Source: an uncultured Planctomycetia bacterium (GTDB lineage: Bacteria; Planctomycetota; Phycisphaerae; FEN-1346; JAACEH01). From it: a DNA stretch of 64,000 nt. The notes under the pieces were generated by a model that saw only the letters and a list, made by a program, of their open reading frames with translations, ran no database searches and was not told the origin of the DNA. The stretch is taken from positions 16,974 to 80,973 of the forward strand of contig CAIYVX010000082.1 of the NCBI GenBank assembly GCA_903929765.1, given 5' to 3'. This document shows, in pieces, positions 31,053-63,740 of the stretch. Made by a program: the position numbers and the translations under genes. Position 1 is the stretch's first letter. The number at the start of each line of letters is the position of its first letter.

Positions 31053-31130
31053 CCAGATTATACCGGAGTTACATCTGGTCTGAGCCGTGCGCAGGAATAG
31101 AGCAGTTCACGATTGAATGGTTACTTCCAG

Positions 31131-31175
31131 GGTGCCACACCTTGGCCCCCGGCTGTATGGGGGCAAGGTCTGTGG
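31131..31175 (+). repeat. REP-A hairpin repeat (divergent copy)
   Basis: GGTGCCACACCTTGGCCCCCggctgtatGGGGGCAAGGTCTGTGG has the same head (GGTGCCACAC) and the same architecture as the REP-A copies. It lies just downstream of the cytochrome c gene. Confidence 0.6.
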
Positions 31176-31633: not shown

Positions 31634-32701
31634 TCAGGATTTAGCCTTTTCCGGCGGCGCGTACCACCTCAGGCACCAGTTGCGCCAGCGCCGCTCCAGT
31701 TCCTTATAATTCAGCCCGGGATAGGCCTGCCCCAGCGCTTCTTCCCCCCGCGTGCCGTCCTTCATCAAGTCCAGAAAACGCCGGATGCCGTCCGGGTCGC
31801 GGCTCGCCAGGTAATCGATCAGGCTCATGCTCACCTCATAGGCCTGGATGTCGCTGGGCGGAAACGGTTCGGTCAGTATCCGCTGAATGGAAACGTATGG
31901 CTCCGTTCCCGCCCGCTGGTAAGCCGGAACCTCTTTCCCGACCCGCAGCCCCGGATCGATTTCCACCGTCATGTATTCCGCCAGGCCTTCATGCACCCAG
32001 AGCGGCAGGGGCACCGACTCCCGGTACATCTCCACCAGGGCGTGCGTGCTTTCGTGCACCAGCACGTCCCGGAAATGTTCGATGCCTCCCTCGGCCGGCT
32101 GATAGGTCGCAATGTGCACCAGCCGCGGCCCGCCGGCCTGCCGGGCTTCCAGAACAAAGTACCCGCGCGAGTGCGTCACCAGGTGCCGGTCGAACCGCCG
32201 GGCGAAGGCGTCCAGGGCCTCCTGCTGGGAAAAAACCACCACCAGGCACTTGCCGTCCCACAAGCGTTGCTCGGCGGGAATGGCCAGCCGAGCCATCAGC
32301 TTCGTCCGCAGATCCTCCAGCCAGACGAGGATCGCGTTTCGCATCTTCGGATCAAGATCTGAAAAAAGAATATAATTCTTCGATTCCTTCGCCACCAGCG
32401 CCGTCTGCAAGGTCCGCCGCATCTCCCCCAGCCGGTCACGCTGGCTCTGCACGATGGCCGCCTGGTCGATCTGCGGCCGCGGCGGCAAAGCCTCCGTCGC
32501 CGGCGCCGACAGAATCACCGTCGCCGAAGGCGACGCCACCGGGGCCGCCTGACCTGAGGGCGCTGCCGAACTCCAGACCACCGCGTCGGCCGCCATGCTG
32601 CCGGAGACGAACGAGAGCATGAGAACCAGGACGACTGCCGCTCCTGGAATCCTGCCGTTTATAATTTTTAATTTTTCATTTTGCATTTTGCCTTCTTCCA
32701 T
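31634..32701 (-). CDS. Secreted DUF1570-like HExxH metallopeptidase (putative)
   Basis: Signal peptide, VLVHESTHAL (HExxH) followed by WVHEGLAEY, the pattern of the DUF1570/MA-clan family described in Rhodopirellula. ATG 32701 overlaps the hflX stop (TGATG). Confidence 0.55.
   Translation of the reverse strand: MEEGKMQNEKLKIINGRIPGAAVVLVLMLSFVSGSMAADAVVWSSAAPSGQAAPVASPSATVILSAPATEALPPRPQIDQAAIVQSQRDRLGEMRRTLQTALVAKESKNYILFSDLDPKMRNAILVWLEDLRTKLMARLAIPAEQRLWDGKCLVVVFSQQEALDAFARRFDRHLVTHSRGYFVLEARQAGGPRLVHIATYQPAEGGIEHFRDVLVHESTHALVEMYRESVPLPLWVHEGLAEYMTVEIDPGLRVGKEVPAYQRAGTEPYVSIQRILTEPFPPSDIQAYEVSMSLIDYLASRDPDGIRRFLDLMKDGTRGEEALGQAYPGLNYKELERRWRNWCLRWYAPPEKAKS
32658..32690 (+). repeat. AT-rich element J (copy 1)
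   Basis: Contains AATTTTTAATTTTTCATTTT (32663-32682) and TAATTTTTCATTTTGCATTTT, both shared with copies at 59698 and 63694. It sits immediately 3' of the hflX stop. Confidence 0.7.
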
Positions 32702-34029
32702 CACGACGCCGACTTCCTCGTTTCACCCGCCAGAACTACGCCCGCGCGCTCGGCCGGGTGCAACGTAATCTCCAGCCGCGAAAACTCCCGCAGCAAAAAA
32801 TCCGTCAAATGTTGCGGCAACCGCACCTTCATCACCGTCCGGCTGCCGTCCAGTTCGCACTCCACCCGCCCGGCGTGCCGCGTCACCGCCGACTGCCACG
32901 CCCCGTCCTCGCTCGGACCCTTGATCGTCAGATCCCGCAGCGGACCGCCCAGAATCTCCAGCACCCGTTCCCGCAGCGCCTCGATCCCCCGACCCGTCAC
33001 GGCGCTGGTGAGCACGTTTTCCTGATGGCGGAATTCCAGCACGCGCAACCCGTTCTCGTCCGCCAGCAGATCCGTCTTGTTGAACACCATCAGGACCGGT
33101 TTAGTGCCGCACCCAATTTCCCGCAGCACCACGTTCACCGCCTCAATCTGCCCTTCCACGTCCGCCGCGCTTGAGTCCACGACGTGCAGCAACAAATCCG
33201 CGCTGCGGGCCTCCTCCAGCGTCGCCCGAAACGACGCCACCAGATGGTGCGGCAAGTCGCGCACAAATCCCACCGTGTCGCTCAGCAGCACCCGCAGGTT
33301 GTACGGCAAAGTCCAGGTCCGCGTCCGCGTGTCCAGCGTCGCAAACAGCTTGTCTTCCACGTAAGCATTAGCGTTCGTCAGGGCGTTCAGCAGCGACGAT
33401 TTCCCGGCGTTGGTATACCCCACCAGGCTCACCGCAAACTCTTCCTTGCGCGATTGCACCTGCCGCTCGCGCCGCTCCTGAATCTCCTGAATCCGCCGCT
33501 TCAAATCCACGATGCGCTTCCGCACCAGCCGCCGGTCGGTTTCCAACTGCGTTTCGCCCGGCCCGCGCACCCCGATGCTCCCGCCGCCCTCCAGCCGCGA
33601 CAAATGCGTCCACATCTGCCGCAAGCGCGGATAGGTGTATTCCAATTGCGCCAGTTCGACCTGAAGCTTTGCTTCCGACGTGCGCGCCCGTGTGGCAAAA
33701 ATGTCGAGGATCAATTCGCTGCGGTCCAGCACCTTGACCCCAACCGCCTTTTCGAGGTTCCTGATCTGCCCCGGCGTCAGGTCATTATCAAAAATCACCA
33801 CCGTCGCCTTCCGCGCCACGGCCAGCCGCCCGATCTCCTCGGCCTTGCCTTTGCCGACGTAAAGCCCGGCGTCGGTCATGCGACGGTTCTGCACCACCGT
33901 CCCCACCACCGCTCCGCCCGCCGCCTCCGTCAACCGCGTCAACTCCGCCAGCGGCTCTTCGCCGACATCGGCCTTGCGCTCCGGCAGAATCACCTCCACC
34001 AGAATCGCCCGTTCGCGCGCCACCGTCAT
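32701..34029 (-). CDS. hflX: GTPase HflX
   Basis: 442 aa with an HflX N-domain and G domain (LVGYTNAGKSSLLNALT, DTVGF, NKTD). Confidence 0.9.
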   Translation of the reverse strand: MTVARERAILVEVILPERKADVGEEPLAELTRLTEAAGGAVVGTVVQNRRMTDAGLYVGKGKAEEIGRLAVARKATVVIFDNDLTPGQIRNLEKAVGVKVLDRSELILDIFATRARTSEAKLQVELAQLEYTYPRLRQMWTHLSRLEGGGSIGVRGPGETQLETDRRLVRKRIVDLKRRIQEIQERRERQVQSRKEEFAVSLVGYTNAGKSSLLNALTNANAYVEDKLFATLDTRTRTWTLPYNLRVLLSDTVGFVRDLPHHLVASFRATLEEARSADLLLHVVDSSAADVEGQIEAVNVVLREIGCGTKPVLMVFNKTDLLADENGLRVLEFRHQENVLTSAVTGRGIEALRERVLEILGGPLRDLTIKGPSEDGAWQSAVTRHAGRVECELDGSRTVMKVRLPQHLTDFLLREFSRLEITLHPAERAGVVLAGETRKSAS

Positions 34030-34134: not shown

Positions 34135-34149
34135 CGCGGCTGCTTCACA

Positions 34150-34196
34150 GTGGCACGGGCATCTTGCCCGTGAGTCTTAGGGGCATCTTGCCCCTG
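34150..34196 (+). repeat. REP-B double-hairpin repeat
   Basis: GTGGCACGGGCatcttGCCCGTGAGTCttAGGGGCatcttGCCCCTG: two consecutive 7-bp hairpins. Confidence 0.85.
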
Positions 34197-34208
34197 GTTC
34201 TTCTTTTA

Positions 34209-35633
34209 TTATTGTTTCTTCTCTCCGGGTGCCACACTTTGAAGCCCCGGCTTTGCCGGGGCCAAAGTGTGTGCTTTGTCGCGCTCCTCGCTCTCCTCGA
34301 CAACCACCTTCGGCTCCGGGAACAACCACATCACCAGCCGCCCGTGATTCGACACGGCCGCAGCGGGCAATTCTACCGCCGAATTTCCGTCGAACCACCC
34401 GAACAGCACGCCCACGCCCTGCCGCACATATTGCTGCGCGACCCAGCGCATGGCCCGCCGCCTAAACGCATCCGCCGGCGCTTCCGCCGAAAACGCCGCC
34501 GCGTCGATCGAAACCGCCTCGCTCGTCGGCCGGTACACTTCGTCAACCAGCCCCATCCGCCACGCCCGGCCCGCCAGATAGCACCACGCATCCTCCAGCC
34601 GCGCCCCATCACCTAAACGCACTCCGGGCACACCCGATTGCACCCAAAACATTTTACCACCACTCGAAGGGTAGGTGCTTATATCCCACTCGCCAGCCTC
34701 AAAGGCCAGAATCAGACCAGGGGTAGCAGGAATGTTCTCCACCGACCATTCTCCGCCCTCGTGGCGATGAAGTATCACCCCTTCGTACATCACCCGGTCC
34801 GCCTCGGCCGCCACCAGCGGGCGCGGCTGCAACCGTGCCTTAAAGTACAGCGTCGCTGGACCTGCTCGGAGAGCCGTCACCGCCGCCAGATCTTCCACCA
34901 GGGCCTGACCCGTCGAGCCATCACGGGAAACGACCGAAACTGCATCCACCGAATACAGCGGTTTTTCAACCAGGGCCACGGCCCAGACCGCCCCACCCAA
35001 AGCCACAACAACCATCGCCGCGATCTTAATCCTATGCGAAAAAAGTTCTGCCACCAACGCCAGGCAAACCAGCACCGCCGTCACCGCCAGCGCCGGAATC
35101 AGAAAATGCCAAACGTCAGCCAACTGCCACGACCGCCCCTGAAACAACATCGTTGGAATCTGTCCTTTATTCTGATCCACATATCCAATCAAATCCGGCC
35201 GCACATGCGTCCGCGCCGCCAGACGGTCGAGCAAACTACCTGACGAAGCCGCACCCTGCCCTCCCAAGCTCGGCCTCAGTTTCGCAGGAGCATAGCTAAC
35301 CAACAACTTCCCTGCGGCGTCCAGCCCCTCGATGGCCGAAAGGTTCAGCGACCCGTCGAAATACCACGGCTCAAACGTCACGTCGCCCGTTTGCCGCGCC
35401 GGAATCAGCACGTCCAGCCGGTACTCGAAAAGTTGATTGGTTTTAATCCGCACCTGCCGGATGTCGGCCGCCGAAGTGTTCGCCAGTTGCAGCGCCACCG
35501 GCAGCTTCATCCCCGAAATTCCCACATCCGAGCCGGCGAAACGAACGTTCGCCCCCGTCTCAGCCCGCGCCTCCACACCCAACGCCGCCGAAAACATGAA
35601 AACCAACAGAACGACGAGCGGCAACTTTTTCAT
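34209..35633 (-). CDS. Hypothetical membrane-anchored protein
   Basis: ORF 34209..35648. ATG 35633 gives MKKLPLVVLLVFMFSAALGVEA (signal peptide) 5 nt after the upstream stop. There are two central TM segments. No recognisable domain. Confidence 0.5.
   Translation of the reverse strand: MKKLPLVVLLVFMFSAALGVEARAETGANVRFAGSDVGISGMKLPVALQLANTSAADIRQVRIKTNQLFEYRLDVLIPARQTGDVTFEPWYFDGSLNLSAIEGLDAAGKLLVSYAPAKLRPSLGGQGAASSGSLLDRLAARTHVRPDLIGYVDQNKGQIPTMLFQGRSWQLADVWHFLIPALAVTAVLVCLALVAELFSHRIKIAAMVVVALGGAVWAVALVEKPLYSVDAVSVVSRDGSTGQALVEDLAAVTALRAGPATLYFKARLQPRPLVAAEADRVMYEGVILHRHEGGEWSVENIPATPGLILAFEAGEWDISTYPSSGGKMFWVQSGVPGVRLGDGARLEDAWCYLAGRAWRMGLVDEVYRPTSEAVSIDAAAFSAEAPADAFRRRAMRWVAQQYVRQGVGVLFGWFDGNSAVELPAAAVSNHGRLVMWLFPEPKVVVEESEERDKAHTLAPAKPGLQSVAPGEKKQ
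34228..34274 (+). repeat. REP-A hairpin repeat
   Basis: GGTGCCACACTTTGaAGCCCCGGCtttGCCGGGGCcAAAGTGTGTGC is a long imperfect palindrome. It overlaps the last ~20 codons of ORF 34209..35633. Confidence 0.85.
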
Positions 35634-35637
35634 GTCA

Positions 35638-37605
35638 TCACAAATCATAAGCCCGCTTCACCCTCAGTATTTCCGCCACGCTCCAGGCCTGAGCGAAACA
35701 GCCGCGCGGCCAGTGCGGCTCGTCCCCATCAAATATCTCCGCCACCGTGCCCAGCGTCCCCTGGTCCAACGTCGCCAGGGCATTGTCGATCACGCCCTGA
35801 GCCTCGCCGTGGGCCACAAACTCCGACTCCGCCGACGCCATCAGGGCATCGACATACGGCCCCAGCAGCCACGGCCAGACCGTCCCCTGGTGATACGCGA
35901 AATCCCGCTCGAACCAATTCCCGATGCACCGGCCCCGGTAATCCCGATCCTCGCGCGCGAGCGTCCGCAGGCCGCACGGCGTCAAAAGTTTCCGCCGCAC
36001 CGTCCCCACCACCGCCCGCGCCCGCTCGCCCGTCACCGGGGCAAAGGGCAGCGACACCGCGAAAAGCTGATTCGGCCGCACCCGGACATCCCGGTTCTTA
36101 CCGTCCACGCAGTCATAAAGGTAGCCGCCCTCAGCGTTCCAGAACGTCTCGCCGAAGGCCGCCGTCGTCCGAGCCCGCCCGCGCACCGCCTCGGGCAATT
36201 TCGCTTTCGTCGCCCACTTTTCGCCCCAGTCCGCCACGATCCCCAGCGCCGACAGCCACAGGGCGTTGATCTCCACCGCCTTGCCGCGCCGCTGCGTAAA
36301 GGGAACGCCCCCGTGCATCGCGTCCATCCAGGTCAGGGCGTGGCCGTCCTCGCCCGCCCAGATCAGCCCGTCGGTGTCCGCATGAATGTGGTGCCGCGTC
36401 CCCGAGTGGTAGCGCCGCACAATTTCCAGAATCGGCTTCCACAGCTTGTCGTGGACGAAGTCCAGGTCGCCCGTCGCCTGCCCATAGGCCCGCGCCGCCT
36501 GGATGAACCAGAGCGACGAATCCACAGAGTTATATGACAACTTCTTGTTGTCGTCCTCGAAGCGGTTCGGCATCATCCCTTCGTCAATGAGGCCGGCGAA
36601 AAGTTCCAGCACCGCCCGGGCCAGGTCGTGCCGCCCCGTCGCCAGGCACAGCCCCGGCAGCGCAACCATCGCGTCGCGGCCCCAGTCCGCGAACCACGGA
36701 TAACCCGCCAGAATGCTCGCCAGAGTCCGCTCCCGGCTCGGCCGTTCCACCAGGAACTGATCCGCCGCGATCACCAGCATCTCTTCACGCTGCCCGCGCG
36801 GCCCCGCCAGCCGTACCAGTTCCCGCCGCCGCGCCAGTTCTCCCTGACACGCCGCCGCGAACGTCAGCGCCGGTTCATCCGCCCCCAGACTCGCCGTCAG
36901 CACCACTTCCTGCCGCGCGTCCAGATCGACCGTCGCCGACCCGACGCGCAACAAATCTTCCACGTCGTCCTGCCCGCGCTCCGTCTCCACGCGATAGCAA
37001 ATCCCCTTGTACCAGATCGGCTCAACCATGATCTCCGCCCCGCCCGCACGAATGAAGAGATCCTGTCCCCCGACACCCGACACCCGCCAGCCCGCGTCCG
37101 CCGGCTCAACATTCAGCCCGTCGCGCCGCCCTTTCAACTCATGAAAACTCCGCATCGCCACAAACGGCGCGAGCACCAGCTTGGCCCCCGCCGGCGCCCC
37201 GGTCACCTGGTACTGAATCATCACGCAATTGGTCCGGTACACCATCAGGACGCGCTTCGTCACCACCGTTTCGCCGACCTGCCAGCGCCAGACCGGCAGC
37301 GGATCGAGCCGGAAGTCGAGCAGCCGCCGATTGCCATCCGGAAAAAATCCGTCGCGATATTCCGTTGTGTTGAGGTAATGTTCGCCCGACGGCAGGACCA
37401 GCATTTCGTCCAGGTGCGACAGCAGGACGTAACGATCCAGCGGCGGATTCAGCGCCGCCACCAAGAGGCCGTGGTACCGCCGCGTGTTGCACCCCACCAG
37501 GCTCGACGAGCAATACCCGCCCAGCCCGTTGGTCAGCAGAAACCCGCGCCGCAACGACCACTCCAAATCCTGAAGATTATCCGCCCCGGCCACAAACGTC
37601 CACAT
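35638..37605 (-). CDS. Glycogen debranching enzyme (amylo-alpha-1,6-glucosidase, GDE_C type)
   Basis: 655 aa. N-terminus ...GFLLTNGLGGYCSSSLVGCNTRRYHGLLVAAL... and an (alpha/alpha)6-type C-terminal region typical of archaeal/bacterial GDE-like proteins. Confidence 0.8.
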   Translation of the reverse strand: MWTFVAGADNLQDLEWSLRRGFLLTNGLGGYCSSSLVGCNTRRYHGLLVAALNPPLDRYVLLSHLDEMLVLPSGEHYLNTTEYRDGFFPDGNRRLLDFRLDPLPVWRWQVGETVVTKRVLMVYRTNCVMIQYQVTGAPAGAKLVLAPFVAMRSFHELKGRRDGLNVEPADAGWRVSGVGGQDLFIRAGGAEIMVEPIWYKGICYRVETERGQDDVEDLLRVGSATVDLDARQEVVLTASLGADEPALTFAAACQGELARRRELVRLAGPRGQREEMLVIAADQFLVERPSRERTLASILAGYPWFADWGRDAMVALPGLCLATGRHDLARAVLELFAGLIDEGMMPNRFEDDNKKLSYNSVDSSLWFIQAARAYGQATGDLDFVHDKLWKPILEIVRRYHSGTRHHIHADTDGLIWAGEDGHALTWMDAMHGGVPFTQRRGKAVEINALWLSALGIVADWGEKWATKAKLPEAVRGRARTTAAFGETFWNAEGGYLYDCVDGKNRDVRVRPNQLFAVSLPFAPVTGERARAVVGTVRRKLLTPCGLRTLAREDRDYRGRCIGNWFERDFAYHQGTVWPWLLGPYVDALMASAESEFVAHGEAQGVIDNALATLDQGTLGTVAEIFDGDEPHWPRGCFAQAWSVAEILRVKRAYDL

Positions 37606-37662
37606 AGTGACCCCCAGTATACGCTACTGTTGGTATGGTGCAATAGAAGATGACAAATACAG

Positions 37663-37710
37663 GGTGCCACACTTTGTCCCGACCGCCTTTTGGTCGGGCA
37701 AAGTGTGTGG
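37663..37710 (+). repeat. REP-A hairpin repeat (left flank of RAYT)
   Basis: GGTGCCACACTTTGtCCCGACCgccttttGGTCGGGcAAAGTGTGTGG, 18 nt downstream of the RAYT stop. Confidence 0.85.
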
Positions 37711-37727
37711 TTGGTCTGCCGGAAACC

Positions 37728-38264
37728 TCAGACCGGAAGAATATCCATCTCTAAACCTTCATGTCGTTCGTACCACGCGGCACTACTCCAGCGCCAGTCC
37801 GCGACCGACTCGACCAGGCCTCGCCGCACCGGATTATTGTGAATGTAATTGAGCTTCTCATAGAGTTCTTCCCGGCTTGTGATATTCCTATCATAACCAC
37901 CTCCTCCCAGCCAGAAGTGCGGCCTTCCCTGAGCGTCGGTGATCCGAGAGAGAATGGGGGCGTTCAACTCGCGCCACCGAGCGAGAACATCTTTCGAGAA
38001 CGGGCGCTTCAGGGCGTGAAGAATAGCCGTGACGGTAAAGTCAGGGAGGTCAGGTGTCAGAAGCAGGTGGAAATGCTCCGGCATAACGACCCAGGCGTAG
38101 AGGGCAAAGTCCGTCTGCCGCCGGACAAAAGACAACCGGTCTACGAAGGCGTCCTTGACGCGATCACTCTTGAACAGCGGCAACCGGCCGTAGCAGGAAC
38201 AAGTCAGGTAGCGAACATGGTTTGGCAACTCGTAGCGTTTAAGAGTTCGACGATTGTCGCTCAT
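37728..38264 (-). CDS. REP-associated tyrosine transposase (RAYT; IS200-like Y1/HUH family)
   Basis: ORF 37728..38393. The likely start is ATG 38264 (MSDNRRTLKRY...). HUH motif VMPEHFHLLL and Tyr region GGGYDRNITSREELYEKLNYIHNNPVRRGLV...WRWSS. Confidence 0.8.
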   Translation of the reverse strand: MSDNRRTLKRYELPNHVRYLTCSCYGRLPLFKSDRVKDAFVDRLSFVRRQTDFALYAWVVMPEHFHLLLTPDLPDFTVTAILHALKRPFSKDVLARWRELNAPILSRITDAQGRPHFWLGGGGYDRNITSREELYEKLNYIHNNPVRRGLVESVADWRWSSAAWYERHEGLEMDILPV

Positions 38265-38323
38265 GACGGGGCATCTCGACCAATCGGCACGAAGTTTATT
38301 CGGAAGATTTACTTGCGGTCCGA

Positions 38324-38370
38324 ACACACACTTTGCCCGGCATACTGCCGCCGGGACAAAGTGTGGCACC
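38324..38370 (-). repeat. REP-A hairpin repeat (right flank of RAYT, inverted)
   Basis: ACACACACTTTGcCCGGCatactgcCGCCGGGaCAAAGTGTGGCACC is the reverse-complement orientation of the other REP-A copies. Confidence 0.85.
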
Positions 38371-38403
38371 CTCGTTCCAAGGATCCCAAACAATCAGCTG
38401 AAA

Positions 38404-39579
38404 CTACCTCTTCAGCCGCTGCCGGATGTTGTCCAGGACGTTCATGTAGTTGATGTAGGAATCGTACGGTGAATCGTACGGATTGAAGTACTTATGAACG
38501 TCCCCGTCCGCGAACCACTTCGTGCACATGTAATAGAAATGGTCCGACGTCAGCAGCCGCCGCCAGTCGTGCAGCAGGTTCGGATCAGCCTTGTCCTTGA
38601 TCTGCTTCTCCAGCCGGTAGACTTCGTGCAGGGCGTTGGACTGCATGGCGTTGCCGAGCCACGCCGACAGGTCGCGCTCGATGTCCGCCCACGATATCAT
38701 GTGCGGCACGTCCAGCGTCCCCTCCGGCTCGTAGCGGTCCGTCGCCTCCGAGAGGGTCAGAAAATTATTATCCGGGTGCTGCAGCACGATCTCCGGCAAC
38801 TTCTGCATGAACTGGAAAATCCCCGTGTCTTCCCACTGGTGTTCGCCGAAGGTCTCATAGTCCATAAACAGGTTGACCATGTAGCCGTTGCCGTTGACCT
38901 GGTTGACCCACTGCCCGAACTTCTCCGCCGTCAGCGGCCACTCGTTCCACTGGCGGTTCGAGAAGCGGAAGGCGATGTCGTCGCTCAGGCGATAATTCTT
39001 CAGCAGCAGCTTGATGTTGCGCGTGCCCAGCGGCCGGTACATGAACGTCGGGCTGCGGTAGCCCAGAATGTGGTCCGCCCCCTCGGCCAGGATGCCCTTG
39101 AAGCCCATCTCCTCGATGTAGTGCGCCAGATCATTATTATAAATAAGCTCGGTGTTCCGGAAAACCTGCGGCTTGTAGCCGAACACTTCCTGCATCTTGG
39201 CCGCGTGCGAAACCACCTGCTGCCGGAATTCTTCCCGGCTGTACAGGAAGGCCAGCGAGTGGTAATAGGTCTCGTTCAGAAATTCCACGCAACCGGTGGC
39301 CGCCAGTTGCTTGAAGCTCTCGATCACCTCCGGGCAATAGGCCAGGAACTGATCGACCGCGATCCCGGTGATCGAATAGCTGCACCGGAACCGTCCCTGG
39401 TTGCGGCGGATCAGATCCAGCATCACCTGGTTCGCCGGCAGGTAGCACTTGGTGGCCACCTTCCGACAAATTTCCGCATTCTTGTAGTCATCGAAATAAT
39501 ACGGATCGGTGTCAAAGACGGAATAGCGGCGCAACCGGTACGGCTGATGCACTTGGAAATAAAAACACACTGAGGCCAT
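38404..39579 (-). CDS. GH57-family alpha-amylase/glycoside hydrolase
   Basis: MASVCFYFQVHQPYRLRRY...ELIYNNDLA...ETFGEHQWE matches the GH57 conserved blocks (HQP, E..GEH). Confidence 0.8.
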   Translation of the reverse strand: MASVCFYFQVHQPYRLRRYSVFDTDPYYFDDYKNAEICRKVATKCYLPANQVMLDLIRRNQGRFRCSYSITGIAVDQFLAYCPEVIESFKQLAATGCVEFLNETYYHSLAFLYSREEFRQQVVSHAAKMQEVFGYKPQVFRNTELIYNNDLAHYIEEMGFKGILAEGADHILGYRSPTFMYRPLGTRNIKLLLKNYRLSDDIAFRFSNRQWNEWPLTAEKFGQWVNQVNGNGYMVNLFMDYETFGEHQWEDTGIFQFMQKLPEIVLQHPDNNFLTLSEATDRYEPEGTLDVPHMISWADIERDLSAWLGNAMQSNALHEVYRLEKQIKDKADPNLLHDWRRLLTSDHFYYMCTKWFADGDVHKYFNPYDSPYDSYINYMNVLDNIRQRLKR

Positions 39580-39618
39580 ATCGTCGTTTCGTCCTTCCCC
39601 CGCAAGTTGTCCTTACCA

Positions 39619-39666
39619 GTGGCACGGGCGTCCCGCCCGTGAGTCCCACGGCCATCTTGGCCGTGG
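39619..39666 (+). repeat. REP-B double-hairpin repeat
   Basis: GTGGCACGGGCgtcccGCCCGTGAGTCcCACGGCCatcttGGCCGTGG, in the spacer between the GT gene and GH57. Confidence 0.85.
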
Positions 39667-39687
39667 TTGTTTTTGTTTTTTGCGCCA

Positions 39688-42245: not shown

Positions 42246-42273
42246 GATCCATTCCTCCGCGTGCCGCTTCTTT

Positions 42274-42318
42274 TTCACCCCTCTCCCTTGAGGGGAGAGG
42301 GTAGGGTGAGGGTGTTGC
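42274..42318 (+). repeat. Family C repeat, variant (45 nt)
   Basis: TTCACCCCTCTCCCTTGAGGGGAGAGGGTAGGGTGAGGGTGTTGC. Its exact reverse complement occurs at 48782-48826. Confidence 0.9.
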
Positions 42319-42374
42319 TGTTTCTTCTGCTTTTGTTGCTGCGCCTTAAGCCTTAAGCCTCAAGCCTGCCTTTC

Positions 42375-46271: not shown

Positions 46272-46300
46272 AGTGCCCGTTCTTCGGGTGCCGCCGTTTC

Positions 46301-46349
46301 TTCACCCCTCTCCCTCGGGAGAGGGTGGCCCGAAGGGCCGGGTGAGGGG
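46301..46349 (+). repeat. Family C repeat
   Basis: TTCACCCCTCTCCCtcGGGAGAGGGTGGCCCgaaGGGCCGGGTGAGGGG. The same element lies inside valS at 56210-56269. Confidence 0.85.
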
Positions 46350-46488
46350 TTAGCTCACCACCTCAAAAACTTCACCAGAACGCCATCATACGCGAGGACA
46401 TGCCCTGCCCGCGCCCTAAGCCCGACCAAAGTATTCCGAATCGCCCCATTTTTCAAGTAAAAACGCTGTGCGTACAGCCTTTGTTGTT

Positions 46489-46514
46489 CGTAGGGACAGG
46501 GCTCTGCCCTGTCC
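46489..46514 (+). repeat. Family F (GTAG-headed) REP
   Basis: CGTAGGGACAGGGCtcTGCCCTGTCC, identical to 63476-63500. Confidence 0.85.
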
Positions 46515-46544
46515 AGCCGTTTCTTTTGCCGTTGCCGCTTCACC

Positions 46545-46595
46545 GTGGCACGGGCTTCCCGCCCGTGAGTCGCAGGGGCATCTTGCCCCTGTGCC
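46545..46595 (+). repeat. REP-B double-hairpin repeat
   Basis: GTGGCACGGGCttcccGCCCGTGAGTCgCAGGGGCatcttGCCCCTGTGCC. About 75 nt including flanks is nearly identical to 61598-61675. Confidence 0.9.
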
Positions 46596-46615
46596 GTTGT
46601 TCTTGCCGTTGCCGC

Positions 46616-48764: not shown

Positions 48765-48781
48765 GATGAACGACAAAAGAA

Positions 48782-48826
48782 GCAACACCCTCACCCTACC
48801 CTCTCCCCTCAAGGGAGAGGGGTGAA
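48782..48826 (-). repeat. Family C repeat, variant (inverted copy)
   Basis: GCAACACCCTCACCCTACCCTCTCCCCTCAAGGGAGAGGGGTGAA is the exact reverse complement of 42274-42318. Confidence 0.9.
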
Positions 48827-50150
48827 GAAGAAAAAGAAGAGGCAGGCCGTGACCGAACGAAAAATCCGCATCCAACTCGCCCTCGATTTCGCCGACCTGA
48901 GCCGCGCCCTGGCCGTGGCCCGCGCCGCCGTGCCCGAGGGCATCGACATCGTCGAAGCCGGCACGCCGCTCATCAAGAGCGAGGGTCTTAACGCCGTCCG
49001 CGAGTTGCGCCGCCTCTTTCCCGACCGGCCGATCCTGGCCGACCTCAAGACCGCCGACGCGGGCCGCATCGAAATGGAATGCGCCGCCAAGGCCGGGGCC
49101 ACGATGGCCATCTGCCTCGGCGCCGTCAGCGAATCGACCGTCCAGGAATCCATCGAAGCCGGCCGCAATTACGGCATCGAGGTCGGCGTCGACATGCTCG
49201 GCGTCGCCGATTACGTCGCCCTGGCCAAAAAATGCGAAGCCTGGGGCGCCGCCTTCCTCAACGTCCACCTCCCCATCGACGACCAGATGCGCGGCCTCCA
49301 ATCATTCGACCGCCTCCGCCAGATCGCCGAAGCCGTCTCGATTCCCGTCGCCGCCGCCGGGGGACTTAATTCCGAAAACGTCGTCGACGCCATCGCCGCC
49401 GGCGCTGCCATCGTCATCATCGGCGGCGCGATCACCAAGGCCGCCGACGTGGCCCAGGCCACGAGGGACATTCGCCGCGCGGTGGACACGCGGGCCAAAG
49501 TCGCCACCGAACTTTTCCGCCGCGCCGGCGAGACCGACATCCGCGAAGTCCTCGGCCGCGTCTCGGCCGCCAATTTAAGCGACGGGGCACACCGCCTGCC
49601 CTCGCTCGACGGACTCCGCCCGCTCTGGCCGGGCATCCGCTTTTGCGGCCCGGCCCTGACCGTCCGCACCGTCCCCGGCGATTGGTCGAAGCCCGTCCTG
49701 GCCATCGACCAGGCTGAGCCTGGCGACGTTCTCGTCATCGACGCCGGCGGCCGCCCGCCCGCCGTCTGGGGCGAACTGGCCACACAGAGCGCCATCGTCA
49801 ACAAGCTCTCCGGCGCCGTCATCGACGGGGCCGTCCGCGACACCATGGACATCCGCCGCCTCGAATTCCCGATCTTCTCCCGCTGCGTCTCGGCCAACGC
49901 CGGCGAACCCAAGGGCCTCGGCGAAATCGGCCAGCCGATTTTCCTTTCCGGCCAGCGAATCATGACCGGCGACTGGATTCTCGCCGACGACGACGGCGTC
50001 GTGGTTCTGCCCAAGGCCCGGGCGGTGGAAATGGCCAACCGCGCCCAGGACGTTCTGGAAAAAGAAAACCGCCTTCGCGACGAAATCACCAGCGGCCGCA
50101 GCTCGCTCGGCAAAGTCGCCGAACTTTTGCGCTGGGAGAAAAAATCTTAA
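48822..50150 (+). CDS. Fusion protein: 3-hexulose-6-phosphate synthase-like (OMPdecase/HUMPS fold) plus RraA-like domain
   Basis: The N-terminal half has IQLALDF...IVEAGTPLIK...LADLKTADAG (HPS/KGPDC pattern). The C-terminal half has ...PGDVLVIDAGG...AVWGELATQSA...GAVIDGAVRD (RraA/aldolase pattern). The start may be GTG 48849 instead of GTG 48822. Confidence 0.75.
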   Translation: MKKKKKRQAVTERKIRIQLALDFADLSRALAVARAAVPEGIDIVEAGTPLIKSEGLNAVRELRRLFPDRPILADLKTADAGRIEMECAAKAGATMAICLGAVSESTVQESIEAGRNYGIEVGVDMLGVADYVALAKKCEAWGAAFLNVHLPIDDQMRGLQSFDRLRQIAEAVSIPVAAAGGLNSENVVDAIAAGAAIVIIGGAITKAADVAQATRDIRRAVDTRAKVATELFRRAGETDIREVLGRVSAANLSDGAHRLPSLDGLRPLWPGIRFCGPALTVRTVPGDWSKPVLAIDQAEPGDVLVIDAGGRPPAVWGELATQSAIVNKLSGAVIDGAVRDTMDIRRLEFPIFSRCVSANAGEPKGLGEIGQPIFLSGQRIMTGDWILADDDGVVVLPKARAVEMANRAQDVLEKENRLRDEITSGRSSLGKVAELLRWEKKS

Positions 50151-53404: not shown

Positions 53405-53445
53405 GCTGCGGTTGCCCTTTCTTTTTCACCCGCACCCCCTTGCCG

Positions 53446-54139: not shown

Positions 54140-54174
54140 GTGCCACGGCGGGTCTTGTCCCGCCGTGCGAATGC
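54140..54174 (+). repeat. Family E hairpin repeat (upstream of valS)
   Basis: GTGCCACGGCGGGtcttgtCCCGCCGTGCGAATGC. A second copy in the same orientation is at 58120-58153. Confidence 0.85.
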
Positions 54175-54207: not shown

Positions 54208-57200
54208 ATGACCCAACCCGAAACCAACTCCACCAACCCCACCGACCTTCCCACCCAATACGACCCCAAGCTCTTCGAAAAGGAAGTTTACGCCTTCTGG
54301 GAATCTCATAACTATTTCCACGCCGACCCCGCGCGCGGCGGAAAACCCTACGCCATAGCCATCCCGCCCCCCAACGTCACTGCCGCCCTCCACCTCGGCC
54401 ACGCCCTCAACAACACCCTTCAGGACATCCTCGTCCGCTGGCGCCGCCAGCAGGGCTACAACACCCTCTGGATGCCCGGCACCGACCACGCCGGCATCGC
54501 CACCCAGGCCGTCATCGAAAAACGTCTCCTCGCCAACGAAGGCCTGCGCCGCAAAGACCTCGACCCCGACCCCGCCGTCGCCCGCACCAAGTTCGTCGCC
54601 CGCGTTCAGGCCTGGAAAGACGAGTACGAAGCCCGCATCCTCGGCCAGCTCAAAGCCATGGGCTGCTCCTGCGACTGGGACCGCACCCGCTTCACCATGG
54701 ACGAAACCTGCGCCGCCGCCGTCCGCGAAGCCTTTTTCCGCCTCTTCAAAGACGGCCTCATCTATCGCGGCAAACGCCTCGTCAACTGGGACCCCGCCAC
54801 CCAGACCGTCCTCGCCGACGACGAAGTCGAACACGAAACCGTCCAGGGAAATTTCTATTACCTCCGCTACCCGCTGGCTGAAGCCGTTGCTTTACCCAGT
54901 GACACGGGCATCTTGCCCGTGAGTCCCACGGGCGTCCCGCCCGTGGCCGCCGTTTCTTCTTCACCCAGTGGCACGGGCGTCCCGCCCGTGAGTGCCACGG
55001 GCATCTTGCCCGTGGAAGACTTGCCTGTAATCAAGCGTCAGGGTGCCAACCTGCCTCACTGGACTCAATCCGGCGCAACCTATGCCATCACGTTCCGGTT
55101 GGCCGATTCTCTCCCCGCCCAAGTCATTGAATCATGGAAGCATCACCGGGAAGAAATCGAACAAAGAGCCAACTCCCAAGGCCGCAAGATGACCTGGCAG
55201 GAGCGTAAGGAACTCCACCAACTGTACGAATCCCGCATCGACAGCATGCTGAACACCGGTCTTGGGGCGTGTTATCTCAACAATCCGGAAGTAGCCGAAA
55301 TCGTCCAGGACGCACTGAAACATTTCCACGGCGAGCGATACGAACTGATCGCCTGGTCACTCATGCCCAACCACATCCATGCCGTTCTCCGTCCTCTGGG
55401 AGAACACCATCTCGCGGACATCATCCACTCCTGGAAGTCCTTCACGGCTAAGCAAGCCAACAAAATTCTTGGACGAGAAGGACAGTTCTGGATGGAGGAA
55501 TACTACGACCACCTGATTCGCGACGAAGAGGATTTTGGCCATGCGGTAATGTACGCGATCAGCCATCCGGAGCGCGCCGGCCTGGCCGACTGGCCGTGGG
55601 TCGGACTGCAAAAAACGGCACAGGGGCAAGATGCCCCTGCGACTCACGGGCAAGATGCCCGTGCCACTGTTATAACACACATCACCGTCGCCACCACCCG
55701 ACCCGAAACCATGCTCGGCGACACCGCCGTCGCCATGAACCCCCGCGACCCCCGCGCCGCCGCTCTCGTCGGCCAGATGGTTCGCCTCCCCATCGTCGGC
55801 CGCCTCATCCCCATCATCGCCGACGAACACGTCGTCCTCCCCAACCCCGAAGGCGACGAAAAAGCCCGCTTCTCCACCGGCTTCCTCAAAGTCACACCCG
55901 CCCACGACCCCAACGACTGGGACATCGGCCAGCGCCACAAACTCCCGGCCATCAACGTCATGGCCCCCGACGGCTCAATCTCCGACAAGCACGGCTGGAC
56001 CGACTGGGACGCCGTCAAAAATCCTGATGTCGAAAAATTCATTGGCCTCGACCGCTTCATAGCCCGAAAGAAGATCGTCGACTGGTTCGGCGAAAACAAT
56101 CTTCTCGAAGAAGTCCGCCCCTACGCCCACGAAGTCGGCCACTCCTACCGCAGCCATGTCCCCATCGAACCCTACCTCTCCGACCAGTGGTTCATCGCCG
56201 TGAAAAAGCCGTTTCTTCTTCACCCCTCTCCCTCGGGAGAGGGTGGCCCTTCAGGGCCGGGTGAGGGGTTGAGGCCCTTGCCCGTTCCGACCGCGCCCGA
56301 ACTGATCCCCGGCACCGACGTGCCAGTTAATTCTTTAGCCGGCTTGGCCATCAAGCCGCTCCTCGACGGCAAACTCAAATTCGTCCCCGAGCGCTACGCC
56401 CGCAACTACCAGAACTGGCTCGAAAACCTTCGCGACTGGCCCATCTCCCGCCAACTCTGGTGGGGACACCGAATTCCAGTGTGGCAAGGAATCACTGAAT
56501 TTGGATCGAAGGTGTTTGAGGGCAAGGACACAGCAAAATCTCCATTCGGAATAGCCGGCGTAGAAGGAATACACATACAGCACAGAGATGAGGCTGGAAA
56601 ACTGGGACTGTATGCCTCGGTACCGCCCGGCCATCCAGACAAGGAAAAGAAACTGGAGGAGGCTGGCCTAACCCGCGACCCCGACGTCCTCGACACCTGG
56701 TTCTCTTCCGGCCTCTGGCCCATCTCAACCCTCGGTTGGCCGGAACAAACCGACGCGCTGAAATTCTATTACCCCACCTCCGTCCTCTGCACCGCCCGCG
56801 AAATCATCACCCTCTGGGTCAGCCGCATGGTCATGTTCGGCGAATATTTCCAGCACGACCTCCCCTTCCGCACCGTCTACATCCACGCCATGATTCAGGA
56901 CGGCGAAGGCCGCAAAATGTCCAAGAGCCTCGGCAACGGCATCGACCCCCTCGACATCATCGACTCTCACGGGGCCGACGCCATGCGCTTCACCATCGCC
57001 GCCATGACCACCGAAACTCAGGACGTCCGCATGCCGGTCGAAACCCTCACCCTCCGCGACGGCCGCACCGCCAACTCCAGCCCCAAGTTCGACCTCGGCC
57101 GCAACTTCTGCAACAAGCTCTGGAACGCCTCCCGCTTCGCCTTCATGAACCTCGCCGAACTTTCCCCCGAGCCGTTCGACCGCGCAAAAATGCTCCTCGA

Positions 57201-58053
57201 AGACCGCTGGATTCTCTCCCGCCTCACCACCACCGTCGAAGCCGCCACACAGGCCCTCGAAAAGTTCCAGTTCCACGACGCCACCGACGTGATCTACTCT
57301 TTCTTCTGGAACGATTTCTGCGACTGGTACCTCGAAATCACCAAGCCGCGCATGCGCGACGCCGCCACCAGAGCCGTCCCCCAACGCATCCTCGCCTACG
57401 CCCTCGACCGTCTCCTGCGGCTCCTCCACCCCTTCGTCCCGCACATTACCGAGCACCTCTGGACCCACTTCGCCCGCCTCGTCCCCGACCGCTCGCTCGA
57501 CTCTGCGGCCCCCGCCCCACCCGCCGAAGCCTGCATCATCGCCCTTTGGCCCGAGCCGGTCGCCGCTTTTTACGCGCCCCAGGCCGAAACCGATTTCGCC
57601 CTCGTCCAGGCCGTCATCCGCGCCATCCGCAACATCCGTTCGCGCATGAACATCGCCCCGCGCGTCCCGCTCCGCGCCGTCATCCGCTCGAGCGCCGCCG
57701 CCACCGCCCGCCTCTCCGCCGCCGCCGACACCATCCGCCACCTCGCCGCCCTCGAATCTCTTGAGGCCGACCCTGCCGCCGAAAAGCCCAAAGCCTCCGC
57801 CGCCGAAATCGTCGAAGGCCTGGAAGTCTTCGTCCCCCTCGCCGGCGTCATCGACCTCGCCACCGAGCGCGACCGCCTCGCCAAACTCTCGGCCGAGAAG
57901 GATAAGGCCCTCGACAGCGTCCGCAAAAAACTCTCGAACGAAAACTTCGTCGCCCGCGCCAAGCCCGAAATCGTCGCCAGCGAACGCGACCGCGCCGCCA
58001 AGCTCGAATCCGAACTCGCCGCCCTCACAGCCAACATGAAAGATTTGGAATAG
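54208..58053 (+). CDS. valS: Valyl-tRNA synthetase carrying in-frame mobile-element insertions
   Basis: ORF 54133..58053. ATG 54208 gives MTQPETN...PTQYDPKLFEKEVYAFWE. HIGH (PPNVTAALHLGHA), ATTRPETMLGDTAV, DWPISRQLWWGHRIP, KMSKS (RKMSKSLGN) and a coiled-coil C-terminus are all present in one frame. 1281 codons because of the inserts at 54899-55667 and about 56200-56300. Confidence 0.9.
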   Translation: MTQPETNSTNPTDLPTQYDPKLFEKEVYAFWESHNYFHADPARGGKPYAIAIPPPNVTAALHLGHALNNTLQDILVRWRRQQGYNTLWMPGTDHAGIATQAVIEKRLLANEGLRRKDLDPDPAVARTKFVARVQAWKDEYEARILGQLKAMGCSCDWDRTRFTMDETCAAAVREAFFRLFKDGLIYRGKRLVNWDPATQTVLADDEVEHETVQGNFYYLRYPLAEAVALPSDTGILPVSPTGVPPVAAVSSSPSGTGVPPVSATGILPVEDLPVIKRQGANLPHWTQSGATYAITFRLADSLPAQVIESWKHHREEIEQRANSQGRKMTWQERKELHQLYESRIDSMLNTGLGACYLNNPEVAEIVQDALKHFHGERYELIAWSLMPNHIHAVLRPLGEHHLADIIHSWKSFTAKQANKILGREGQFWMEEYYDHLIRDEEDFGHAVMYAISHPERAGLADWPWVGLQKTAQGQDAPATHGQDARATVITHITVATTRPETMLGDTAVAMNPRDPRAAALVGQMVRLPIVGRLIPIIADEHVVLPNPEGDEKARFSTGFLKVTPAHDPNDWDIGQRHKLPAINVMAPDGSISDKHGWTDWDAVKNPDVEKFIGLDRFIARKKIVDWFGENNLLEEVRPYAHEVGHSYRSHVPIEPYLSDQWFIAVKKPFLLHPSPSGEGGPSGPGEGLRPLPVPTAPELIPGTDVPVNSLAGLAIKPLLDGKLKFVPERYARNYQNWLENLRDWPISRQLWWGHRIPVWQGITEFGSKVFEGKDTAKSPFGIAGVEGIHIQHRDEAGKLGLYASVPPGHPDKEKKLEEAGLTRDPDVLDTWFSSGLWPISTLGWPEQTDALKFYYPTSVLCTAREIITLWVSRMVMFGEYFQHDLPFRTVYIHAMIQDGEGRKMSKSLGNGIDPLDIIDSHGADAMRFTIAAMTTETQDVRMPVETLTLRDGRTANSSPKFDLGRNFCNKLWNASRFAFMNLAELSPEPFDRAKMLLEDRWILSRLTTTVEAATQALEKFQFHDATDVIYSFFWNDFCDWYLEITKPRMRDAATRAVPQRILAYALDRLLRLLHPFVPHITEHLWTHFARLVPDRSLDSAAPAPPAEACIIALWPEPVAAFYAPQAETDFALVQAVIRAIRNIRSRMNIAPRVPLRAVIRSSAAATARLSAAADTIRHLAALESLEADPAAEKPKASAAEIVEGLEVFVPLAGVIDLATERDRLAKLSAEKDKALDSVRKKLSNENFVARAKPEIVASERDRAAKLESELAALTANMKDLE
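54899..54946 (+). repeat. REP-B double-hairpin repeat (inside valS, left copy 1)
   Basis: GTGACACGGGCatcttGCCCGTGAGTCcCACGGGCgtcccGCCCGTGG, translated in the valS frame as SDTGILPVSPTGVPPV. Confidence 0.85.
54968..55014 (+). repeat. REP-B double-hairpin repeat (inside valS, left copy 2)
   Basis: GTGGCACGGGCgtcccGCCCGTGAGTGcCACGGGCatcttGCCCGTG, translated as SGTGVPPVSATGILPV. Confidence 0.85.
55617..55667 (-). repeat. REP-B double-hairpin repeat (inside valS, right copy, inverted)
   Basis: GGCACAGGGGCaagatGCCCCTGcGACTCACGGGCaagatGCCCGTGCCAC is the reverse complement of the REP-B consensus, translated as TAQGQDAPATHGQDARAT. Confidence 0.85.
56210..56269 (+). repeat. Family C repeat with shared leader, inside valS
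   Basis: GCCGTTTCTTCTTCACCCCTCTCCCtcGGGAGAGGGTGGCCCttcaGGGCCGGGTGAGGGG, the same element as the intergenic copy at 46301-46349. It is read in frame as PFLLHPSPSGEGGPSGPGEG. Confidence 0.85.
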
Positions 58054-58119: not shown

Positions 58120-58153
58120 GTGCCACGGCGGGCTTGCCCCGCCGTGCGAATGC
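58120..58153 (+). repeat. Family E hairpin repeat (downstream of valS)
   Basis: GTGCCACGGCGGGcttgcCCCGCCGTGCGAATGC, in the same orientation as 54140-54174. Confidence 0.85.
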
Positions 58154-59607: not shown

Positions 59608-59630
59608 GTTTACATCCTTTCCTTGTTACA

Positions 59631-59677
59631 GTGGCACGGGCGTCTCGCCCGTGAGTCGCAGGGGCATCTTGCCCCTG
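59631..59677 (+). repeat. REP-B double-hairpin repeat
   Basis: GTGGCACGGGCgtctcGCCCGTGAGTCgCAGGGGCatcttGCCCCTG, in the 116-nt spacer between the kinase and regulator genes. Confidence 0.9.
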
Positions 59678-59696
59678 CTTACTGTTTTTGTTTCTT

Positions 59697-59730
59697 CAAT
59701 TTTTAATTTTTCATTTTTAACTTTTAATTT
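59697..59730 (+). repeat. AT-rich element J (copy 2)
   Basis: AATTTTTAATTTTTCATTTT at 59698-59717. It contains the stop codon of the histidine kinase gene. Confidence 0.7.
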
Positions 59731-61598: not shown

Positions 61599-61612
61599 GT
61601 TGCCGCTTCACC

Positions 61613-61663
61613 GTGGCACGGGCGTCCCGCCCGTGAGTCGCAGGGGCATCTTGCCCCTGTGCC
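61613..61663 (+). repeat. REP-B double-hairpin repeat
   Basis: GTGGCACGGGCgtcccGCCCGTGAGTCgCAGGGGCatcttGCCCCTGTGCC. Confidence 0.9.
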
Positions 61664-61694
61664 GTTGCCGTTGTTTCACCGCCAATCCTTAACT

Positions 61695-63460: not shown

Positions 63461-63475
63461 TGCCGTTGTTTTTTT

Positions 63476-63500
63476 GTAGGGACAGGGCTCTGCCCTGTCC
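63476..63500 (+). repeat. Family F (GTAG-headed) REP
   Basis: GTAGGGACAGGGCtcTGCCCTGTCC, identical to 46490-46514, 16 nt after the mtnA stop. Confidence 0.85.
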
Positions 63501-63520
63501 GGCAGTTGCTGTTGTTTCTT

Positions 63521-63562
63521 TCGTAGGGGCAGAGTTCATCTCTGCCCTGCTGTTTCTTTTTT
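63521..63562 (+). terminator. Family F REP acting as a likely intrinsic terminator of mtnA
   Basis: TCGTAGGGGCAGAGttcatCTCTGCCCTGC is followed by TGTTTCTTTTTTT: an 8-bp GC-rich stem plus a T-run on the mtnA strand. Confidence 0.45.
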
Positions 63563-63566
63563 TCCG

Positions 63567-63610
63567 GGTGCCACACTTTGAAGCCCCGGCCCTGCCGGGG
63601 CCAAAGTGTG
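63567..63610 (+). repeat. REP-A hairpin repeat
   Basis: GGTGCCACACTTTGaAGCCCCGGCcctGCCGGGGCcAAAGTGTG, near-identical to 34228-34274. Confidence 0.9.
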
Positions 63611-63687
63611 TTCTTTGCTTCGCTCTACAATCCCCAATCGCCGCAACCCATCCTACTTCCGCCCGCCTCATTTTCTGCTTCTTTCGC

Positions 63688-63740
63688 TTTTACATTTTTA
63701 ATTTTTCATTTTTAATTTTTCATTTTGCATTTTTCATCTC
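63688..63740 (+). repeat. AT-rich element J (copy 3, internally duplicated)
   Basis: ATTTTTAATTTTTCATTTT (63694-63712) followed by TAATTTTTCATTTTGCATTTT (63712-63732). It contains the trpC stop codon. Confidence 0.7.

Follow-up and report, generated by a model that had tools for sequence, protein, structure and literature searches.

A probable REPtron with inverted GGGTGC-footed hairpins in the glycogen gene cluster of an uncultured planctomycete

We analysed a 64,000-nt stretch of DNA (hereafter, the window) from contig CAIYVX010000082.1 of an uncultured Planctomycetia bacterium, in which an element composed of one gene and two hairpins lies within a glycogen gene cluster. The gene, RAYT-1, encodes a putative tyrosine transposase associated with repetitive extragenic palindromes (REPs), or RAYT (also termed TnpA-REP), and the hairpins belong to a repeat family that we designated REP-A. 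The element is located between a GH57 gene and a glycogen debranching enzyme (GDE) gene and has their orientation, as stated in an earlier note made from the letters of the window without database searches; all three genes are on the minus strand. The features of the locus, in the direction of the genes, are as follows.

38404..39579, minus strand: GH57 gene, the upstream neighbour, with an intact C-terminus (…DNIRQRLKR*)
38324..38372, minus strand: upstream REP-A hairpin, located by folding and an inverted-repeat search
37728..38264, minus strand: RAYT-1 gene, identified by family models, motifs, and fold
37661..37710, plus strand: downstream REP-A hairpin, located by folding and an inverted-repeat search
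37616..37621, minus strand: TATACT hexamer, a candidate -10 element in the stretch separating the insert from GDE, 10 nt before the GDE start codon
35638..37605, minus strand: GDE gene (GDE_N + GDE_C), the downstream neighbour, with an intact N-terminus (MWTFVAG…)

The RAYT-1 open reading frame (ORF) runs on the minus strand from an ATG at 38264 to a stop at 37728 and encodes 178 amino acids plus the stop codon. Its translation carries VMPEHFHLLL and YEKLNYIHNNPVRRGL, exactly the motifs that the earlier note had quoted for a 178-codon HUH/Y1 transposase-like gene. The NCBIfam equivalog model REP_Tyr_transpos (NF047646) matched the protein at 100.3 bits (cut-off, 80) over model positions 3-146 of 146, and Pfam Y1_Tnp (PF01797), proposed in that note as a check, matched at 25.1 bits (cut-off, 23). 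The HUH motif was assigned to H64-F-H66 and the Y motif to Y140-IHNNP; H64, H66, and Y140 are invariant across 32 homologues (52-71% identity). The closest solved relative by sequence, and the sole clear one, is E. coli TnpA-REP (4er8; E 7.7e-8). In the alignment, PEHFH falls on PEHMH and Y140 on the first tyrosine of DYIYINP, a residue that is reportedly the catalytic Tyr115 (Messing et al. 2012). The AlphaFold model, built on the 32 homologues, had a pLDDT (predicted local distance difference test) of 92.1. Its top Foldseek match in the PDB was 4er8_A (E 1.1e-9; template modelling score 0.63/0.68), followed by the ISDra2, IS608, and IS200 transposases, indicating an HUH-Y1 fold. As judged from its family models, motifs, and modelled fold, RAYT-1 is a RAYT/TnpA-REP protein of the HUH-Y1 single-strand DNA endonuclease family.

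A protein database search returned 1777 relatives of RAYT-1. The named ones are from Planctomycetota or Phycisphaerae, and some already carry the NCBI label 'REP-associated tyrosine transposase'. Scanning one representative genome per species, a set to which the source genome does not belong, confirmed 583 relatives, the best 80 of which are almost all from metagenome-assembled genomes of Phycisphaerae. The 64-kb window contains one copy of RAYT-1; searching it with RAYT-1 also revealed a second RAYT-like sequence at about 55040-55600 (+), only 28% identical. Two or three distant paralogues of the RAYT-1 family were observed per genome in CP053450.1, CAZBDZ01, DAINDF01, CAXREY01, and JACKHC01 (loci L008-L087).

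Each REP-A flank forms a hairpin by itself. On the minus strand, the upstream copy consists of a GGGTGC foot, the stem CACACTTTGTCCCGGC, a loop, and the stem GCCGGGCAAAGTGTG, and folds at -17.3/-18.6 kcal/mol (z about -4). On the plus strand, the downstream copy has the same foot, followed by the stem CACACTTTGTCCCGACC, a loop, and the stem GGTCGGGCAAAGTGTG, and folds at -18 kcal/mol (z -4.4). In both copies the foot is outermost, pointing away from the gene. The distance between hairpin and gene is 59 nt on the start-codon side and 17 nt on the stop-codon side. The stems are near-perfect, with one unpaired base. Folded as single-stranded DNA, the REP-A hairpins reached -17 to -21 kcal/mol (z -4.0 to -5.4), and none of 200 shuffled sequences was as stable. 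The pair is inverted, with arms at 37661-37686/38347-38372 (26 nt, 92%) and a second pair of arms at 37695-37719/38315-38339 (25 nt, 84%). The brackets had been described as reverse complements of each other; the inversion holds, but the right copy is an inexact reverse complement, in which the inner stem and the loop differ.

REP-A is also dispersed in the window. The sequence GGTGCCACACTTTG occurs exactly at 37663 (+), 38357-38370 (-), 34228 (+), and 63567 (+), and with one mismatch at 31131. The core 12-mer CACACTTTGYCC was found six times in the window (0.52 expected). Within the 64 kb there are two solo copies and one variant:

34227..34273, plus strand: solo REP-A copy with the same foot, the same outer stem, and a different inner stem (-20.7 kcal/mol)
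63566..63611, plus strand: solo REP-A copy, 88% identical to the copy at 34227
31130..31175, plus strand: diverged REP-A copy, GGGTGCCACACCTTGG...CAAGGT

The flanking palindromes form one family with these copies and also flank orthologues elsewhere, in agreement with the kinship that had been assumed for them. The stem variant of the 31130 copy, CACACCTTG, also stands beside the RAYT gene of another locus (L007). The solo copy at 34227-34273 falls in the last ~20 codons of a 479-aa ORF (34209..35648), and it seems to replace or extend the C-terminus of this ORF, since the homologues in relatives align to about residue 445 only.

The same layout recurs in other genomes. Three RAYT-1 homologues (58-64% identity) in unrelated gene contexts showed the same inverted arrangement, with hairpins of the GGGTGCCACACTTTG type, read as GGGTGCCACAC(T/C)TTG. 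We examined 80 Phycisphaerae RAYT loci for hairpins with at least eight Watson-Crick pairs and with GTGC immediately 5' to the stem and oriented toward the gene. Of these loci, 49 had such a hairpin upstream and 49 downstream, with 41 having one on each side. Elsewhere in these loci GTGC made up 2.4% of the hairpin feet, yet it was the commonest foot there, presumably due to solo copies. Because the resulting 100 flanking hairpins had been selected for pairing and for a GTGC foot, the informative features are the stem diversity, positions -5/-6, and the comparison with the background. The set contained 55 different stems. The two bases before GTGC were G in about 70%, giving GGGTGC, and the stem nearly always opened with C-G, A-T, and C-G pairs, with all four Watson-Crick types used farther in. 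The stem of the window was found only in L008, L009, and L010, the loci whose RAYT proteins are the most similar (64, 58, and 65%). A constant foot with a co-varying stem is the rule in the RAYT-1 clade, because 55 stems stand behind one foot and a stem is common to the most similar proteins only. Where proteobacterial REPs have their GTAG guide (PMC3333891, PMC8266576), the hairpins of this clade have the GGGTGC foot, of a different sequence. A search of the flanks for GGGTGCC with one mismatch was uninformative, with a background of 4.8 matches per kb in these G+C-rich genomes, and a hairpin detector permitting G-T pairs and long loops was dropped, since its output in the window was mostly noise.

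We interpret the element as a REPtron, that is, a RAYT gene with two cognate REP hairpins, inverted and with their GGGTGC feet outward, and place the probability of this reading at roughly 0.85. REP hairpins stand on either side of the gene. Compared with the published definition (PMC3333891, PMC6006769), the family, motifs, and fold of the protein fit, as do the hairpins at its flanks, while the foot, GTGC/GGGTGC, departs from the canonical REP tetranucleotide GT[AG]G. As for the dispersal of the repeat, and for the few gene copies with at most distant paralogues that a REPtron should have, the 64-kb window shows two solo hairpins and one variant, and one RAYT-1 copy beside a second RAYT of 28% identity. 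The element had earlier been called a textbook REP/RAYT unit, a description that is upheld for the REPtron but not for the foot. Departures from GT[AG]G are an accepted feature of subclasses 2.6 and 3 (PMC6006769), so a different foot still allows REPtron membership.

The closest known counterpart is the REPtron of E. coli K-12 (tnpA-REP/rayT, 4ER8; PMC3333891, PMC3479197, PMC8266576). Both encode an HUH-Y1 protein of similar size with PEHxH and YIxxNP motifs, the E. coli protein being the nearest solved relative by sequence and by fold, and both have the gene bracketed by cognate hairpins with a short conserved 5' foot before the stem. In E. coli the same hairpins are scattered over the genome; here, copies were seen within 64 kb. 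The two systems differ in the foot (GTAG there, GGGTGC/GTGC here), in the BIME (bacterial interspersed mosaic element) arrays of E. coli versus one hairpin per side here, and in the stem, since the E. coli enzyme requires a mid-stem bulge whereas the stems here are near-perfect. The two proteins share about 22-30% identity, and the host here is a planctomycete. The locus also resembles the REPIN-RAYT systems of Pseudomonas (Bertels and Rainey; PMC3116915, PMC5581495), in which each RAYT has its own repeat family, protein and repeat co-evolve, and several RAYT/REP systems share a genome; at least two RAYT genes, along with four or five families of hairpins, occur in the window. However, Pseudomonas RAYTs are described as single-copy, vertically inherited, and housekeeping-like, whereas RAYT-1 is absent from the syntenic site in all sampled relatives and its orthologues occupy unrelated contexts. 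Unlike REPINs, the solo REP-A copies are single hairpins with no obvious doublets.

IS200/IS605 elements (IS608, ISDra2) share the catalytic fold and have sub-terminal hairpins with a 5' guide sequence. In these insertion sequences (IS), however, the ends have the same orientation on one active strand, while those of the present element are inverted; tnpB is absent here; and the Y motif is Y--NQ, compared with Y---NP (class 2) in RAYT-1. An IS200/IS605 identity was rejected, because the ends are inverted and the IS200 model NF033573 scored 17.4 bits on RAYT-1, below its cut-off of 55. Among the TnpA-Y1 subclasses (Quentin et al. 2018, PMC6006769, Table 1), subclass 2.6 (Bertels group 5) has a median length of 179 aa, close to the 178 aa of RAYT-1. 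Its W-Q motif matches the family consensus FWQ, its Y motif YIH[QN]NP matches YIHNNP, its serine pair after the Y motif is similar to WSS in RAYT-1, and its HuH-Y spacing is enlarged (74 aa in RAYT-1). On the other hand, subclass 2.6 is mostly found in Bacteroidetes, its flanking structures are called atypical and weak while the hairpins here are strong, and it has N before HuH where RAYT-1 has E. The resemblance, drawn from the Table 1 motif signature alone, is a lead only. A subclass was not assigned, since the signature is ambiguous: PEHxH agrees with subclass 2.2, that of E. coli, whereas YIHNNP, SS, and the protein length agree with 2.6.

The position of the element points to an insertion. 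Farther from the element, also on the minus strand, are a GT4/GT5 glycogen synthase-like gene, hemB, an aspartokinase gene, the 479-aa ORF without domains, and hflX. The gap between GH57 and GDE is 798 nt in the window, while it is below 350 nt (median 216) in 35 of the 37 related loci that hold both genes, and a RAYT gene lies between GH57 and GDE in none of the 37. Four relatives (L093, L173, L174, and L176) keep the order hemB-GT-GH57-GDE-hyp-HflX without the insert, with GH57-GDE gaps of 154 nt, 58 nt, an ATGA overlap, and 200 nt, respectively, and with no REP-A hairpin in this spacer. Based on the gap lengths and on the absence of a RAYT gene from the 37 loci, a lineage-specific insertion of the unit into a conserved GT-GH57-GDE cluster, as had been suggested, is supported. 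In the relatives L088-L092 (GH57 76-83% identical), hemB-GT-GH57 is kept and unrelated genes follow GH57. These loci suggested that the cluster is not ancestral, a view that we rejected because the wider 37-locus sample shows GH57-GDE adjacency. The 3' end of GH57 is a recurrent breakpoint, since GDE has been lost after GH57 in some of these close relatives. In the closest relatives with both genes, GH57 is 80-82% and GDE about 55-61% identical to that of the window. GDE is thus much less conserved than GH57 in the same genomes (55-61% vs 80-83%).

We propose the following course of events. A unit of about 712 nt, consisting of hairpin, gene, and hairpin, would have entered the short GH57-GDE spacer in this lineage only, sparing both coding sequences. 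By analogy with E. coli TnpA-REP, RAYT-1 would bind folded REP-A on single-stranded DNA and recognize it by its GGGTGC foot together with the CAC/GTG stem base. Cleavage would proceed through a 5'-phosphotyrosine at Y140, with a metal held by H64/H66, and would be followed by strand rejoining. REP-A copies would spread in trans, with at least three more within 64 kb. From this analogy, we infer that RAYT-1 is enzymatically active and mobilizes REP-A in trans.

Several points weigh against these proposals. The E. coli recognition rules may not transfer to this clade, because the foot is GTGC/GGGTGC instead of GT[AG]G. The copy counts of both REP-A and RAYT-1 have the 64-kb window as their whole basis. 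Arrival of hairpin, gene, and hairpin as one unit is the parsimonious assumption, but its junctions are not defined: the spacers of L093, L173, L174, and L176 fail to align with that of the window, as these empty-site relatives are too diverged (GDE about 60% identical). Furthermore, REPtrons are considered not to transpose as a unit (PMC3333891).

The structure of the unit offers one possible route. Each of its strands has a footed REP at the 5' end and an inverted REP (iREP) at the 3' end. On such a REP + iREP arrangement, TnpA-REP of E. coli binds the REP and makes its cut either at the iREP or within the linker (PMC3333891). In formal terms, the gene sits in the 613-nt linker of a REPIN/BIME. 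It could be an autonomous mobile element, a giant REPIN/BIME that the enzyme moves whole in cis, although we consider this rather doubtful. Relatives lack the complete unit in this spacer, orthologues occur in unrelated contexts elsewhere, several genomes have two or three family members, and a second, unrelated REPtron in the window, described below, also landed as a unit, inside valS. However, RAYT-1 has one copy in 64 kb, its context is identical in all five metagenome contigs, and solo hairpins are more numerous than the gene. The paralogues within a genome are distant (43-56% identity to the query), unlike the near-identical copies of an active IS, and the IS200 model was far below its cut-off. 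In addition, transposition of the unit is unseen for any REPtron (PMC3333891, PMC6006769). Only tentatively, then, do we suggest that Phycisphaerae REPtrons move as whole units, with the gene riding in the linker of a REPIN-like pair, and that the window holds two independent insertions, one in an operon spacer and one in frame inside the essential valS gene. If true, this would contradict the view of REPtrons as immobile, domesticated loci that act in trans only, and a whole REPtron with empty and filled sites in a conserved cluster bears on this question.

Passive arrival within a larger imported fragment, through homologous or illegitimate recombination and with the transposase uninvolved in the placement, appears unlikely. 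The spacer just outside both hairpins is unusually A+T-rich for the genome, so the imported piece may reach past the hairpins. The G+C content at third codon positions is 65% in RAYT-1 versus 83-86% in GDE, GH57, and GT, a clearer contrast than that of the overall G+C (element, 56.2%; RAYT-1 coding sequence, 55.7%; window mean, 61.9%; neighbouring genes, 57-67%). The lower G+C reported in the earlier note is thus real, but its figures of about 50% against 65-70% are not borne out. However, the RAYT gene is lower in G+C than its flanks in 92% of 65 loci, by a mean of 5 points; since this is a trait of the gene family, we rejected low G+C as a sign of recent horizontal transfer. Close relatives of RAYT-1 were absent from the plasmid collections (32% identity or less), the phage collections yielded no relative, and the coding sequences on either side are complete down to their final codons. 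Still less probable, in our estimation, is that RAYT-1 is an inactive relic whose hairpins now act on RNA, as 3'-end protectors or attenuators between GH57, the ORF, and GDE. As RNA, the transcribed strand would form strong stem-loops at both hairpins (z -3.4 and -4.0, with 76-86-nt segments folding at about -32 to -35 kcal/mol). Transcription of REPs and effects of REPs on the stability of mRNA are documented (PMC3733652), and a REP-B element, of a different hairpin family, lies in the GT-GH57 spacer (39605-39673). Against a relic stand the full-length ORF with every invariant family residue intact and the orthologues that carry the same hairpins outside glycogen contexts. Moreover, neither hairpin precedes a U-run, and the terminator scan flagged neither.

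The only signal in the terminator scan was a weak terminator-like stem over the GH57 stop codon. A read-through transcript would, at a guess, bear a stable RNA stem-loop from the hairpins. The TATACT hexamer upstream of GDE is also present upstream of GDE in L176, L093, and L094 and is rare in distant relatives. A strict sigma-70 scan found no promoter upstream of GDE or RAYT-1 and left TATACT unflagged, so a promoter role for the hexamer is a weak inference. Our guess, from the sequence, is that a separate promoter immediately downstream of the insert probably serves GDE. The locus provides a test bed for the uncoupling of operon genes by REP hairpins. The RAYT-1 REPtron by itself is a modest addition, being a known element type with orthologues already named, while its Phycisphaerae clade (583 relatives; constant foot, changing stems) is a natural data set for the part of a REP that the enzyme reads.

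The second RAYT-like sequence belongs to a REPtron of its own:

about 54880-55675, plus strand: valS REPtron, composed of two REP-B hairpins, a RAYT-like domain, and an inverted REP-B, inside the ORF 54133/54208..58053

Its REP-B flanks are two copies at 54885-55022 and an inverted copy at 55611-55670 (-). The whole element is in frame, without a stop codon, in a valine-tRNA ligase (ValRS) ORF of 1281-1306 aa. This host ORF matched the NCBIfam ValRS model at 1043.6 bits (cut-off, 704) and Pfam Y1_Tnp at residues 387-458 with 26.6 bits; the RAYT domain scored 70 bits on the NCBIfam RAYT model, below the cut-off of 80. The domain carries NHIH, FWMEEYYDH, and MYAISHP motifs, and the REPtron contributes 268 aa in place of 5 residues of T. 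thermophilus ValRS. In two ValRS orthologues (P0361 and P0363; only 60-66% identical), this domain occupies the matching site and retains its HUH and Y motifs, and it is flanked by peptides that REP-B encodes (…GILP.SPTGV…, …HGQDARAT…). Exact-product look-ups for the valS ORF returned nothing on record, and thus gave no assembly support for the junctions.

An exhaustive search with the 196-aa valS domain (RAYT2) returned 9881 relatives. Among the best 150 representatives (P0361-P0510; examples: P0377, P0381, P0394, P0419, P0366, and P0380), 66 are longer than 400 aa. In eight of nine long proteins scanned, the domain is inside or fused to ValRS, AlaRS, UvrA, MurC-Ddl, DNA methylases, or a DinG-like helicase; the ninth, a Type ISP restriction enzyme (P0362), showed no Y1_Tnp at the Pfam threshold and is a match in the RAYT2 search only. 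The surroundings of the domain in twelve long matches mostly carry repeat-encoded peptides such as TGILPV or HGQDARAT. REPs lying in frame have been described in uvrA and in genes for aminoacyl-tRNA synthetases, with the PVC bacterium Opitutus terrae among the hosts (PMC3733652). In a literature search of incomplete coverage, no description came up of a complete REPtron, with its gene, that is maintained in frame within host genes. The valS REPtron, the other in-frame REPs of valS, and the recurrence of RAYT2 inside unrelated host proteins are a larger lead than the RAYT-1 REPtron. We also observed a GTGC-footed hairpin family, GTGC CACGGCGGG…CCCGCCGTG CGAATGC, at 54144-54167 and 58124-58146, bracketing the valS ORF. 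These hairpins have the REP-A foot, and RAYT-1 or a paralogue could use them as a second substrate.

The window contains further repeat families.

34136-34204, 39605-39673, 46531-46599, 54885-55022, 55611-55670 (-), 59617-59685, and 61599-61667: REP-B, double hairpins with a GTGG foot, CAGTGGCACGGGC.TC..GCCCGTGAGTC…
46484-46528, 63470-63514, and 63517-63561: REP-C, with the canonical GTAG foot, GTAGGGACAGGGCTCTGCCCTGTCC
56215-56250, 42268-42319, 46282-46315, 48781-48832, and 53406-53439: REP-E, CACCCCTCTCCC…GGGAGAGGGTG

REP-B is the commonest footed hairpin in the window; in addition to the copy in the GT-GH57 spacer, one stands beside the solo REP-A at 34227. Two tandem REP-C copies directly upstream of the solo REP-A at 63566 form a mixed cluster with it. 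The REP-E copy at 56215-56250 is in frame in valS, where it contributes …HPSPSGEGGPSGPGEG… to a segment of 43 aa inserted relative to 1GAX; at this site of ValRS, P0363 has a REP-B-like peptide instead. We also noted intergenic A+T-rich heptamer tandem repeats (TTTTTAA/TTTTTCA/TTTTGCA) at 32644-32705, 59686-59733, and 63667-63742, in a window of 62% G+C, and a 77-nt direct repeat at 46671-46747/46905-46981, the copies of which are 91% identical and 234 nt apart.

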